Virus genome (UHGV): UHGV-0069511
Source: a virus
DNA: 31,514 bases
Reading direction: 5' to 3' (one strand)
In this document: positions 9,070 to 30,045 of the stretch, in pieces
How the letters are laid out: the number at the start of each line of letters is the position of its first letter
Numbering within the stretch: position 1 is the first letter of the stretch
Program-made: the position numbers and the translations under genes
The notes under the pieces: generated by a model
Database searches by the model: none
What the model was told of the DNA's origin: nothing
What the model saw: only the letters and a program-made list of their open reading frames with translations

Positions 9070-9143
9070 GTCGTTAATTCCTATGCGTGGTTTTACGATA
9101 CCGAAGCCCTGACTGTTACCGCAGTTGGGGCTTCACTGTTTTT
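9068..9143 (+). ncRNA. sar: sar-like antisense RNA covering the ant translation start
   Basis: Predicted start just downstream of the -10 element; plus-strand hairpin GAAGCCC(9103-9109)/GGGCTTC(9128-9134) followed by 'CTGTTTTTG'. Length of about 75 nt is in line with the 68-69 nt P22 sar RNA. Ends are approximate. Confidence 0.4.
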
Positions 9144-28068: not shown

Positions 28069-28572
28069 TCATTGCTGCCCCCACAAACAGACTTCACGCT
28101 CAATCTCACGGCGAGTCATCAGCCCTTTCCATTGCTTACCGCCAGCGTATGTCCAGCGACGTAGCTGGTCACATGCGCCATTGATATCGCCCTGGTTGAT
28201 TTTGCGAAGAAGCGTCGATGTTCTGAAATTGCCTGCGCCCACGTTATAGACGAACGAATAAAGAGCGCCGCGCGTTGTTTCCGGTATATCGACTTTGATG
28301 TACGGGTTAATTTGTCTGGCGACCGTGGCAAGGTCTTTATTCAGGAGGGCTTTGCATTCTGCTTTGGTATACGTTTTACCGAGCATGATGTCTTTTCCTG
28401 TATGCCCGTGACATACAGTCCATACACCAACAATATCTTTGTATGGTATGTAGCTGACACCTTCCAGACCATCGTTACCACTTGGCCCAGTGATTAACAC
28501 AGATGCTATAGCAATAGCCCCACCACTTATCGCCGCTATTACGCTATTTCGTAGTGCCGGTGACATTGCCAT
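28069..28572 (-). CDS. SAR endolysin (lysozyme), phage 21 R21-like
   Basis: Gly/Ala-rich N-terminal SAR segment '[17 protein letters not shown]' followed by lysozyme domain. Confidence 0.85.
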
Positions 28573-28747
28573 TCAATCTGTCCTCGCGCTCTTTGCGCTT
28601 GTAGTACCAGTTGATGCCAAATGTGCCGACAGTACAAAGAATACCAATGATGACAGCCCAGTCATTCAGGGAGAGAATGCCACCCATCGCAGTCAGTCCT
28701 CCGAAGCTGTAACTGAACCATTCTCTGATTTTGTCCATACGGTACAT
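28544..28747 (-). CDS. Class II holin (pinholin-like) with dual start
   Basis: Two predicted TMDs and charged C-terminus 'KRKEREDR'; in-frame Met codons at positions 1 and 4 ('MYRMDK') suggest a holin/antiholin dual start. Confidence 0.7.
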
Positions 28748-28868
28748 GCTCTACCCCTTCATTGAGGGGATTTGCTCTATTTAATTAGGAATAAGGTCGA
28801 TTACTGATAGAACAAATCCAGGCTACTGTGTTTAGTAAACAGATTTGTTCGTGACCGATATGCACGGG

Positions 28869-28904
28869 CAAAACGGCAGGAGGTTGTTAGCGCGACCTCC
28901 TGCC
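28869..28904 (-). terminator. Hairpin with short U-tract downstream of the tRNA genes
   Basis: 9-bp stem GGCAGGAGG/CCTCCTGCC with 12-nt loop, followed on the minus strand by GUUUUG. Confidence 0.35.
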
Positions 28905-28991
28905 ACCCGCTTTCACGAAGGTCATGTGTAGAAGGCCGCAGCGTAACTATCAATGATGAATTCAGGATAGCCAGTGGCTACGGCTCAGTTA

Positions 28992-29067
28992 TGGTGCTGG
29001 TTAACGGACTTGAACCGCTACCCATTCGCTTACAAGGCGACTGCTCTACCATTGGAGCTAAACCAGC
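28992..29067 (-). tRNA. tRNA-Thr (anticodon UGU)
   Basis: Manual fold of the reverse complement: 7-bp acceptor stem GCTGGTT/AACCAGC, D-arm GCTC/GAGC, anticodon loop CTTGTAA, T-loop TTCAAGT, encoded CCA end. Confidence 0.6.
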
Positions 29068-29072
29068 ATATT

Positions 29073-29147
29073 TGGCGGGACAGCGTGGACTCGAACCACG
29101 ATAAGAAGGTTAACAGCCTTCCGTAATGACCTTTATACGACTGACCC
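29073..29147 (-). tRNA. tRNA-Asn (anticodon GUU), slightly aberrant
   Basis: Manual fold: perfect anticodon stem GAAGG/CCTTC with loop CTGTTAA, T-arm CGTGG-TTCGAGT-CCACG, CCA end; one acceptor-stem mismatch and a 3-bp D-stem. Confidence 0.45.
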
Positions 29148-29210
29148 AAATAAAAAATCCCGAAACCGTTGTGCAGGCTCTAACTATTACCTGCGAACTG
29201 TTTCGGGATT
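29148..29210 (-). terminator. Candidate tR' terminator downstream of the late promoter
   Basis: Minus-strand 11-bp stem (AATCCCGAAAC/GTTTCGGGATT) enclosing an inner GCAGG/CCTGC hairpin, followed by UUUUUUAUUU; ends 1 nt before the tRNA-Asn 5' end. Confidence 0.45.
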
Positions 29211-29340
29211 GCATTTTGCAGACCTCTCAGCCTGCGATGGTTGGAGTTCCAGACGATACGTCGAAGTGACCAACTAGGCGGAATCGGTAGTAAGCGCCGC
29301 CTCTTTTCATCTCACTACCACAACGAGCGAATTAACCCAT

Positions 29341-29369
29341 CGTTGAGTCAAATTTACCCAACTTTATTC
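29341..29369 (-). promoter_or_regulatory. Candidate late promoter pR'
   Basis: Minus strand: -35 'TTGACT', 17-nt spacer, -10 'TAAATT', about 55 nt downstream of the Q stop. Confidence 0.4.
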
Positions 29370-29421
29370 AATAAGTCAATATCATGCCGTTAATATGTTG
29401 CCATCCGTGGCAATCATGCTG

Positions 29422-30045
29422 CTAACGTGTGACCGCATTCAATATGTTGTCTGCGATTGACTCTTCTTTGTGGCATTGCACCACCAGAGCGTCATACAGC
29501 GGCTTAACAGTGCGTGACCAGGTGGGTTGAGTAAGGTTTGGGATTAGCATCGTTACAGCGCGATATGCGGCGCTTGCTGGCATTCTTGAATAGCCGACAC
29601 CTTTGCATCTTCCGCACTCTTTCTCAACAACTCTCCCCCACTGCTCTGTTTTGGCTATATCAACCGCACGGCCTGTACCGTGGCAATCTCTGCATCTTGC
29701 GCCCGGCGTCGCGGCACTACGGCAATAATCCGCATAAGCGAATGTTGCGAGCACTTGCAGTACCTTTGCCTTAGTATTTCCTTCAAGCTTTGCCACACCA
29801 CGGTATTTCCCCGATACCTTGTGTGCAAATTGCATCAGATAGTTGATAGCCTTTTGTTTGTCGTTCTGGCTGAGTTCGTGCTTACCACAGAATGCAGCCA
29901 TTCCGAATCCGGCTTGTGATTGCGCCATCCCCATAGCAGCCATCACATCAGTACCGGAAAGAGAGTCAGAAGCCGTAGCCCGTGGTGAGTCGCTCATCAT
30001 CGGGCTTTTTGGCGAGTGAAATTTAGCTACGCTTTCGAGTCTCAT
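29422..30045 (-). CDS. Q: Late gene antiterminator Q
   Basis: 207 aa with zinc-binding 'CRDCHGTGR...CGRCKGVG' and position between the nin region and the late promoter. Confidence 0.75.
   Translation of the reverse strand: MRLESVAKFHSPKSPMMSDSPRATASDSLSGTDVMAAMGMAQSQAGFGMAAFCGKHELSQNDKQKAINYLMQFAHKVSGKYRGVAKLEGNTKAKVLQVLATFAYADYCRSAATPGARCRDCHGTGRAVDIAKTEQWGRVVEKECGRCKGVGYSRMPASAAYRAVTMLIPNLTQPTWSRTVKPLYDALVVQCHKEESIADNILNAVTR

Follow-up and report, generated by a model that had tools for sequence, protein, structure and literature searches.

The 31.5-kb stretch of viral DNA analysed here (UHGV-0069511; below, the window) derives from a P22/HK620-like E. coli prophage with a lambda-type Q/pR'/tR' control region. 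According to ARAGORN it holds exactly two tRNAs, both on the minus strand, at the following places among the late control and lysis elements, given in the direction of transcription:

29422-30045, minus strand: late-gene antiterminator Q of the lambda type, a 207-aa open reading frame with 206 of 207 residues identical to lambda Q
29351-29379, minus strand: pR'-type late promoter with -35 TTGACT, a 17-nt spacer and -10 TAAATT (consensus scan; lambda alignment)
29148-29345, minus strand: 6S-RNA-like pR' leader of about 194 nt, its start placed by the lambda alignment (alignment and fold)
29148-29209, minus strand: intrinsic terminator tR', an interrupted hairpin (29209-29157) followed by U6AU3 (fold; aligns with lambda tR')
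29073-29147, minus strand: tRNA-Asn(GUU), called by ARAGORN and Rfam RF00005, with encoded CCA, G73, U4·U69 and U13·U22
29068-29072, minus strand: spacer AAUAU, 5 nt from the CCA of tRNA-Asn to G1 of tRNA-Thr (read directly from the sequence)
28992-29067, minus strand: tRNA-Thr(UGU), called by ARAGORN and Rfam RF00005, with encoded CCA, A73, G1-C72, C2-G71, G27·A43 and U28-A42
28748-28991, minus strand: conserved late-operon leader, common by alignment to lambda (upstream of S), Kapi1, HK446 and BTP1
28870-28904, minus strand: leader hairpin GGCAGGAGGU / ACCUCCUGCC, then GUUUU (fold; identical in lambda)
28754-28769, minus strand: small hairpin CCCCUCAAUGAAGGGG immediately before the start of the holin, counterpart of the upstream (sdi) stem-loop of lambda S
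28544-28747, minus strand: class II (S21-like) holin with the dual start MYRM, first gene of the late operon (open reading frame)

The original prediction had placed two tRNAs, Asn(GUU) and Thr(UGU), in this region and had proposed running a tRNA finder over it. ARAGORN was run and called both, as did Rfam RF00005, for which, at a gathering score of 29 bits, tRNA-Asn reached 55.3 bits (E-value 1.7e-9) and tRNA-Thr 61.5 bits (E-value 3.4e-11). ARAGORN puts both anticodons at position 34, within 7-nt loops reading CUGUUAA in tRNA-Asn and CUUGUAA in tRNA-Thr, and both tRNAs have canonical loops, with U33, A37, G18G19, a GTTCRA T-loop and a 3' CCA. AsnRS recognizes G34, U35 and U36 together with G73, and ThrRS recognizes G1-C72, C2-G71, G35 and U36; all these identity elements were found in the sequences of the window tRNAs. 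Judged by sequence, both tRNA genes are real and probably functional. The order Q, pR', leader, tR', tRNAs, leader hairpin and lysis genes is as had been claimed, each listed element being found in place or at most about 10 nt off.

With a lambda-family Q adjoining its cognate promoter, 6S leader and tR', the lambda-type late control module is present, and from promoter to terminator it differs from lambda by three substitutions when pR', the 6S leader and tR' are aligned. The promoter-like element suspected downstream of Q turned out to be TTGACT-17-TAAATT at 29379-29351(-), which aligns with lambda pR' with a single substitution, within the spacer, and whose -35 lies 5-10 nt beyond the range first given. 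The Q-binding and pause region of lambda follows directly downstream, and the HK446 record labels the equivalent promoter site 'similar to lambda PR''. The 198-nt 6S-like leader stretch folds at -68.5 kcal/mol (z = -3.5). The long hairpin with a U-tract, 29209-29157 with U6AU3 running to 29148, is indeed strongly structured (-28.3 kcal/mol, z = -5.93; none of 200 shuffles was equally stable), and it was undetected by a simple terminator scan because of its large inner loop. That the tRNAs lie directly after this terminator could be seen to the base: G1 of tRNA-Asn (29147) is the nucleotide immediately following the T-tract. A run of at least five T within 14 nt upstream of the first base occurred in 109 of 126 tRNA-Asn loci, and this association was seen behind several different terminator hairpins.

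P22-like Salmonella phages match at about 97% from the T-tract to the holin. The further hairpin that had been noticed before the holin is a 10-bp stem (28904-28875) with GUUUU to 28870, and its surrounding segment folds at -25.2 kcal/mol (z = -2.98). It is not specific to tRNAs, because lambda has the same hairpin, and it may act as a weak back-up terminator or stabilizer. Among 62 loci the stem (28875-28904) gained no support from covariation; most variants have an uncompensated mismatch at the fifth pair, and the hairpin therefore has no structural support beyond sequence conservation. The holin itself was located where expected downstream of the tRNAs (28544-28747, minus strand); its region is 98% identical to that of BTP1 at the DNA level, and the junction between lambda-type and BTP1-type sequence sits in the loop of the small hairpin at 28754-28769.

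Both the cassette and its placement are already known, common and annotated. Of 5426 complete E. coli genomes, 347 contain the Asn-Thr tRNA pair; PGAP annotates the cassette in hundreds of E. coli genomes, papers on phage genomes have described it from phage 21, Sf6 and ST64T onwards, and the SfI genome paper does so as well (PMC3636060). In phage 21 (AJ237660) both tRNAs are 100% identical to those of the window and likewise start where the T-tract of the terminator ends, but where the window has lambda Q/pR'/6S/tR', this phage has Q21, a promoter of its own and a late terminator with a short hairpin, and the sequence common to the two starts at the T-tract. The Salmonella P22-like prophage BTP1 (LT714109), with an identical tRNA pair and the same lysis cassette, is 98% identical from the T-tract through the holin, but differs in its host and in a Q21-type Q and terminator; transcriptome data put the start of its lytic operon immediately after the tRNAs (PMC7067206). 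The spacer between the two tRNAs is AACAU in phage 21 and BTP1 versus AAUAU in the window. Phages HK446, mEp506, Kapi1, and phiv205-1 have the lambda-type Q, pR', tR', tRNA-Asn, tRNA-Thr and leader in common with the window (97.4-97.5% identity over 686 nt), but continue with a lambda S-type holin, whereas the window has a class II holin of the S21/BTP1 type. The GenBank record of HK446 is without tRNA annotation.

A likeness to Stx phages had also been suggested, and it holds for position: ileZ-argN-argO of phage 2851 fill the same slot, from Q to stx2, and in lambdoid Stx phages, 2851 and those with the 933W-type ileZ-argN-argO cluster among them, tRNAs lie between a Q-controlled terminator and the first late genes. 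Phage 2851 retains the T-tract and about 27 nt of a window-type tRNA-Asn. Its anticodons, on the other hand, are CAU (ileZ type), UCG, and UCU according to ARAGORN, reading AUA, CGA and AGA, versus GUU and UGU in the window, and the Stx-phage tRNAs precede stx, whereas those of the window precede the holin; the window pair does not belong to the ileZ-argN-argO cluster and has only the genomic slot in common with it. The tRNA-Asn - tRNA-Thr tandem of P1 and P7 has the same order and a short spacer, with 81% column identity over the aligned tandem for P7, whose tRNA-Thr has its acceptor and T arms in common with that of the window. It differs in belonging to the C1-controlled ban operon rather than lying behind a Q terminator, in its type of tRNA-Asn, and, in P7, in a tRNA-Thr with a full 5-bp anticodon stem and paired CNG. 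In lambda, the segment of about 165 bp that the cassette replaces was searched for a decayed tRNA; a permissive Rfam search (E up to 10) gave no tRNA-like match, and lambda is therefore without trace of cassette loss.

We consider it very probable that two functional phage tRNAs form a mobile Asn-Thr cassette at the 5' end of the late operon, expressed by Q-dependent read-through and keeping ACA and AAY codons decoded. A consensus scan of the coding strand from pR' to the holin found no second sigma-70-like promoter, so that read-through of tR' would be the simplest account of tRNA expression. By homology to lambda, pR' should fire constitutively and, without Q, the transcript should stop at tR' as a 6S-like RNA, while Q-modified RNA polymerase would pass tR' into tRNA-Asn, tRNA-Thr, the leader and the genes for lysis and morphogenesis. 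Both CCA-encoding tRNAs would presumably be released by RNase P and 3'-trimming enzymes and could keep ACA and AAY decoding going during late protein synthesis. The tRNA-Thr would rescue cells after loss of the single-copy host tRNA-ThrU, as has been shown for the identical phage 21 sequence, and extra ACA decoding for ACA-rich late genes would be a compatible second benefit. A like replacement role may be supposed for tRNA-Asn, host tRNA-Asn being a secondary target of Old and of PARIS AriB.

The tRNA-Thr is the better understood of the pair. In its alignment 94.8% of cells are paired and both sides have changed at 8 of 21 pairs, values reached by none of 500 shuffles; in the controls for the two tRNAs, with 500 shuffles each, slid alignments were 18-51% paired. 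The ThrRS elements G1-C72 and C2-G71 are invariant in all 20 distinct variants. The anticodon arm, GUCGC-CUUGUAA-GCGAA, contains a G27·A43 mismatch, retained in 19 of the 20 variants, which leaves a 4-bp anticodon stem, and a U28-A42 pair. Over all 76 nucleotides this tRNA is identical to that of phage 21, the tRNA-Thr21 of PMC12445682. Govande et al. (2025) reported that cells with the phage 21 tRNA-Thr are protected from P2 Old and that this tRNA, which replaces a host tRNA destroyed by the anti-phage nuclease, withstands cleavage in vitro; its resistance to the Old Toprim nuclease is due to a shortening of the anticodon stem and a change of the C28/G42 pair (PMC12445682). The rescue, from a plasmid, was partial, and over-expression of the host tRNA-ThrU gave no rescue of Old toxicity (PMC12445682). 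The marks of the Old-resistant class (tRNA-Thr21 and tRNA-Thr6, PMC12445682), namely UGU, a short anticodon stem, and C28U/G42A, are all found in the window tRNA-Thr, which is without CNG at 28-30 and 40-42, while the two CNG motifs are present in host thrU. Lambda Gam sets off P2 Old and P22 Abc2 does not (PMC12445682); the anti-RecBCD region of the present phage lies outside the window.

A second Toprim nuclease, AriB of PARIS, cleaves host Lys(UUU), Thr(UGU), and Asn(GUU) tRNAs at a U36AAU39-C40/N41 site (PMC12409363). The anticodons of the window thus name two of the three main AriB targets, including the primary target of Old. The corresponding host tRNAs contain both U36AAU39 and paired CNG, while neither motif occurs in either window tRNA; at the AriB site the phage reads UAAGC/G versus UAAUC/A in the host for Thr, and UAACC/U versus UAAUC/C for Asn. 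Substitutions at this site are the mark of AriB evasion in the T5-type set, and T5 (tRNA-Lys/Thr/Asn; PMC12409363) resembles the window in having Thr UGU and Asn GUU with position-39 substitutions that abolish U36AAU39, a likeness of anticodons and motif loss and not a claim of sequence homology. Unlike the window, T5 is virulent, has a large tRNA set and possesses the decisive tRNA-Lys(UUU), which rescue requires and which also marks PARIS-evading sets: both window tRNAs are non-Lys, and no tRNA-Lys was present in any cassette variant found. Without tRNA-Lys(UUU), the primary AriB target, the pair alone is not expected to defeat characterized PARIS. Only tentatively may the Asn(GUU)-Thr(UGU) pair be regarded as a dedicated two-tRNA counter-defence cassette against P2 Old and PARIS AriB in which tRNA-Asn is resistant too. 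Resistance of tRNA-Asn would come from A28-U42 and C39, which leave neither paired CNG nor UAAU, and perhaps from U4·U69, and the placement behind the Q-controlled terminator would match the supply of replacement tRNAs to the period when late proteins are made. The absence of CNG and UAAU from tRNA-Asn is, however, weak evidence, because many tRNAs are without them by chance, and paired CNG is found in 17 of 121 cassette tRNA-Asn copies (Klebsiella type).

It is also possible, though not probable, that the tRNAs simply supplement codons for AT-richer late genes and that nuclease resistance is incidental. The original prediction had proposed to look for ACA and AAC/AAU enrichment in the late genes, and the first part was borne out: ACA makes up 33.5% of Thr codons there versus 14.1% in host genes (odds ratio 3.1, p = 1e-8), or 19.9 versus 7.9 per 1000 codons in 15 host genes, and the SfI paper had found the same ACA bias, 17.3% versus 7.1% (PMC3636060). 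The second part was not, the choice between AAU and AAC showing no significant shift between late and host genes (p = 0.058), although Asn codons as such are more frequent (54.9 versus 43.2 per 1000). The host reference consists of 15 flanking chromosomal genes only, because the chosen host region held a P2-like prophage. The defence hotspot of that prophage carries Lamassu (LmuA/B/C), not Old or PARIS, which has no bearing on the finding. Supplementation would suit the single host tRNA-Thr(UGU) gene (median one copy per genome), but the host has four tRNA-Asn copies, and ACA is only the sixth most enriched late-gene codon, after AGG, AUA, AGA, CGA and UCA, none of which is read by the window tRNAs. 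Furthermore, the conserved G27·A43 and U28-A42 of tRNA-Thr are the exact features that confer Old resistance, and, as noted above, more of the host tRNA-ThrU does not rescue from Old.

Late expression is central to the reading we prefer, and one alternative moves it to the lysogen, where constitutive pR' and a leaky tR' would yield a basal tRNA supply of benefit to the host, for example against tRNA-targeting toxins. In lambda, pR' is not under repressor control. Leaky read-through of tR' in lysogens may occur, and the hairpin at 28870-28904 with its short U-tract could halt unmodified polymerase that leaks past the terminator; lambda, however, has this second hairpin too although it is without tRNAs, and the hairpin lacks covariation. 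The BTP1 tRNA genes, which are identical to those of the window, were highly represented in RNA-seq of lysogen cultures, Owen et al. listing five genes with TPM > 100 'excluding the two tRNA genes' (PMC7067206), but spontaneously induced cells in BTP1 and Kapi1 cultures could explain such a signal. A main role in the lysogen seems to us unlikely.

The original prediction had further suspected that tRNA-Asn, owing to an acceptor-stem mismatch, may be a pseudo-tRNA. The mismatch is real: in the Rfam alignment two pairs are non-Watson-Crick, U4·U69 in the acceptor stem and U13·U22 in the D-stem. Non-Watson-Crick pairs at 13:22 are common among genuine tRNAs, and 17 of 19 distinct variants keep U4·U69 even as compensatory changes occur at five other pairs (5:68, 6:67, 7:66, 28:42 and 29:41), which makes the mismatch a conserved trait of a covarying, widely kept family rather than a sign of decay. 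In this alignment, whose D-arm and part of whose anticodon arm, including column 39, were fixed by the search pattern, 90.5% of cells are paired and both sides have changed at 11 of 21 pairs, again reached by none of 500 shuffles. G73 is present in 18 of the 19 variants, and the same tRNA-Asn sequence occurs in the window, phage 21, BTP1, and ST64T. The isolated tRNA-Asn folds only marginally better than shuffles (z = -1.7), and the SfI authors saw no codon rationale for it, as would befit a decaying gene riding along with a functional tRNA-Thr. Yet the standard 7-nt loop with its GUU anticodon, G18G19, the GTTCGA T-loop, G73 and the encoded CCA are all there, and a truly degenerate family member looks different: in the copy in the Thr slot of ST64T the loop is reduced to 4 nt, and ARAGORN rejects this copy. 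We regard a pseudo-tRNA as very improbable.

Hardly credible, finally, is the view that these are structural or processing punctuation, or integration-site remnants, and not decoders; the location in an untranslated leader whose 5' part must part from the late mRNA, and cassette boundaries that are mosaic junctions, would fit it, but anticodon, identity elements and CCA are conserved, the identical tRNA-Thr requires the UGU anticodon class for rescue of ACA decoding, lambda manages without tRNAs in the same leader, and an att-site remnant was rejected on the same conserved elements and on int/att lying far from the Q-lysis region in the relatives Kapi1 and BTP1.

As a sequence feature the cassette is ordinary, and its value lies in the context. 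Here, a lambda-type late control region is joined, at the T-tract of the terminator, to a module of tRNAs, leader and lysis genes that otherwise stands behind Q21-type regulators, and the tRNA-Thr of the window is one that is now known to get round P2 Old. If it is true that tRNA-Asn is a nuclease-resistant replacement as well, this would explain why both tRNAs travel together in temperate enterobacterial phages.

Across the 31.5 kb of the window, ARAGORN calls two tRNA genes and no more; both are minus-strand genes, and each scores above the gathering score of the Rfam tRNA model. Sequence, promoter scan and folds confirmed the remaining elements of the original prediction, namely a promoter-like element, a long hairpin with a U-tract upstream of the tRNAs and a further hairpin before the holin, so that its anatomical interpretation, with two tRNAs directly after the putative tR' terminator, was right. 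The minus-strand layout is as follows.

29422-30045 (-): 207-aa ORF, 206/207 identical to lambda Q
29379-29351 (-): promoter match TTGACT-17-TAAATT
between promoter and terminator hairpin (-): structured leader, ~195 nt
29209-29157 (-): long interrupted hairpin, then U6AU3 to 29148
29073-29147 (-): tRNA-Asn(GTT), ARAGORN; Rfam tRNA model 55.3 bits, gathering score 29
28992-29067 (-): tRNA-Thr(TGT), ARAGORN; Rfam tRNA model 61.5 bits, gathering score 29
3' of tRNA-Thr (-): leader, 244 nt, holding a 10-bp hairpin (28904-28875), then GUUUU
28544-28747 (-): holin, 67 aa, then SAR-type endolysin

Folding of the long hairpin with its U6AU3 tract gave -28.3 kcal/mol (z = -5.9), no shuffle being equally stable; G1 of tRNA-Asn is the base immediately after this tract, and only 5 nt separate tRNA-Asn from tRNA-Thr. 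Three positions differ from lambda in the segment that starts at the end of Q and includes pR', the 6S leader and tR'; the alignment with lambda resumes 3' of the tRNAs and reaches the start of S. The tRNA pair (~160 bp) stands in place of ~165 bp of lambda that include the 3' portion of hypothetical orf-64 and in which a permissive Rfam scan found no tRNA-like match. A P22-type sar RNA (RF00262; 77.7 bits, gathering score 43) at 9071-9137 (+) marks the P22-type immI (ant/mnt/arc) region; the window is an HK620/Sf6/P22-like podovirus prophage, yet its Q module is of lambda type. Lambda-type leader gives way to BTP1-type class II holin sequence within the loop of a small hairpin 5' of the holin start (28744-28775, minus strand), which reads CCCCUCAAUGAAGGGG in the window and CCCCUUAUUGGGGG in lambda. 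The holin N-terminus, MYRM, is a dual-start motif and S21-like.

The near-identity to lambda and a consensus scan that found no further coding-strand promoter match between pR' and the holin lead us to infer Q-dependent read-through of tR' into the tRNAs. The second hairpin is not specific to the tRNAs, since it is identical in lambda; covariation gives it no support, and a role as back-up terminator or stabiliser is a guess. In Salmonella prophage BTP1, whose tRNA genes are identical, the two tRNAs were treated separately from five other genes exceeding TPM 100 and the lytic operon start was placed directly 3' of them (Owen et al., PMC7067206), a signal that spontaneous induction could explain. 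RNA-seq of Kapi1 lysogens is reported to show a clear antisense signal over both tRNAs, and the same study reported a comparable signal in BTP1 between the tRNAs and the holin (PMC12922286). The equivalent window region is 28992-29147 (+), and the only plus-strand promoter-like match nearby is ATGACA-17-GAGAAT at 28650-28678, within the holin gene.

The acceptor-stem mismatch on which tRNA-Asn had been suspected to be a pseudo-tRNA is genuine: the Rfam alignment places non-Watson-Crick positions at U4·U69 and, in the D-stem, at U13·U22. Decay, however, is unsupported. U4·U69 is kept in 17 of 19 distinct Asn variants (4:69 is U-A in one distant relative and U·G in another), while the Watson-Crick type switches at the neighbouring 5:68, 6:67 and 7:66 as well as at 28:42 and 29:41 of the anticodon stem; the alignment thus points to a tolerated or selected feature. 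Counting cloverleaf pairs, 90.5% of cells were paired for Asn, with 11/21 pairs changed on both sides (slid controls 34-51%), and 94.8% for the 20 distinct Thr variants, with 8/21 (slid controls 18-47%); none of 500 shuffles reached these values in either case. Invariance of the Asn D-arm and positions 30-40 is uninformative, because the search pattern fixed those columns. Both genes encode CCA. tRNA-Asn has the established AsnRS identity elements, G73 and GUU; tRNA-Thr has those of ThrRS, namely G1-C72 and C2-G71 (both in 20/20 variants), G35 and U36. Neither phage tRNA is a recent copy of a host gene, identity over aligned positions being 48/78 to host tRNA-Asn and 55/78 to thrU.

The Asn-Thr cassette is already known, common and routinely annotated. 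HK446, mEp506, Kapi1 and phiv205-1 share the entire layout (lambda-type Q, pR', tR', Asn, Thr, leader) at 97.4-97.5% identity, both tRNAs being annotated in the Kapi1 and mEp506 records. Of 5426 complete E. coli genomes, 347 have the pair, annotated by PGAP, and 80 genomes have it in the full lambda-type context. In one E. coli genome (NZ_AP027212.1, 869859-871223), the otherwise collinear Q-tRNA-holin region falls into two segments, and an HNH endonuclease gene is annotated where it matches. The SfI genome paper described tandem Asn(GUU) and Thr(UGU) genes downstream of Q, and one or both at the same position in Sf6, ST64T, PS3 and phage 21 (PMC3636060). Phage 21 and BTP1 carry a pair 100% identical to that of the window, but the Q before it is Q21-type and the terminator hairpin differs; homology with the window starts at the T-tract. 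Among 126 loci with this tRNA-Asn (IMG/VR, phage records and the window), 95 were Asn-Thr, seven Asn alone, seven Asn-Gly and six Asn-Phe-Thr-Arg, the rest being rarer combinations. At 109 of the 126, the 14 nt preceding position 1 of tRNA-Asn hold at least five consecutive T, and the hairpins before these T-runs are of several unrelated kinds. In contrast, a long hairpin without T-tract is typical of Klebsiella-type (Asn-Phe-Thr-Arg) cassettes, as in Klebsiella phage ST101-KPC2phi6.1 (1130-1200, AGGGCUCUUG...CAAGAGCCCU, 5' of tRNA-Asn), and may be a different late-terminator or processing structure.

The proposed likeness to Stx phages holds for position and not for tRNA identity, because Stx2c phage 2851 has ileZ-argN-argO in the slot that the window fills with Asn-Thr. 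After its Q21-type terminator, phage 2851 keeps the T-tract and ~27 nt of a window-type tRNA-Asn 5' end (1501-1534 of its locus), followed by unrelated DNA and ileZ-argN-argO, which puts the breakpoint of this swap inside the tRNA. P22-like phages of the ST64T/PS3 type have a degenerate tRNA in the Thr slot: the ST64T copy (1294-1362) has a 4-nt anticodon loop and is rejected by ARAGORN (Rfam 42 bits), so the pseudo-tRNA of the family is found in this lineage and is not the Asn of the window. An IMG/VR contig (L123, 232-307 of the segment) has a chimeric tRNA-Thr, its 5' half phage-type and its 3' half that of host thrU, followed by a glyT-like tRNA-Gly(UCC); Asn-Gly(UCC) occurs in seven other loci. 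This suggests exchange of parts between the cassette and the host thrU-tyrU-glyT operon through recombination inside tRNA sequence.

Codon usage, compared between 19 late genes (6082 codons) and 15 chromosomal genes of a related E. coli, bore out the expected ACA enrichment (33.5% versus 14.1% of Thr codons; odds ratio 3.1, p = 1e-8) but not a shift in AAU/AAC choice, which did not differ significantly (p = 0.058). Asn codons numbered 54.9 per 1000 in late and 43.2 in host genes. AGG, AUA, AGA, CGA and UCA were enriched above ACA, and the median host gene number is one for tRNA-Thr(UGU) and four for tRNA-Asn.

For the tRNA-Thr, a counter-defence function is already published. P2 Old kills cells by excising the anticodon arm of host tRNA-ThrU, and phage tRNA-Thr(UGU) species rescue Old-exposed cells; tRNA-Thr21 of phage 21 is likewise protective and in vitro resists cleavage at Site 1 (Govande et al. 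2025, PMC12445682). The window copy is identical to that of phage 21 (76/76) and has its features, G27·A43 (a mismatch kept in 19/20 Thr variants), U28-A42 and no CNG on either strand. P7, a P1 relative, has its own Asn-Thr tandem, closely spaced and controlled by C1/Op(ban) (1425-1575 of its locus); the acceptor and T arms of the P7 tRNA-Thr are shared with the window copy, but its anticodon stem is a full 5 bp with a paired CNG, so that by motif it would be Old-sensitive.

Among host tRNAs, the PARIS effector AriB cuts Lys(UUU) and Thr(UGU), and with lower efficiency Asn(GUU), at 40|41 beside U36AAU39, and U39A abolishes cleavage (Belukhina et al. 2025, PMC12409363). Position 39 is not U in either window tRNA, and the phage tRNA-Asn lacks the paired CNG of its host counterpart, which makes it plausible, if on thin evidence, that tRNA-Asn also has a counter-defence role, as a nuclease-resistant replacement. 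Against it, such motif absence occurs by chance in many tRNAs, CNG is present in 17/121 cassette Asn copies, and no tRNA-Lys accompanies the pair. In addition, the Old trigger is Gam and not P22 Abc2, and the anti-RecBCD region of this phage lies outside the window.
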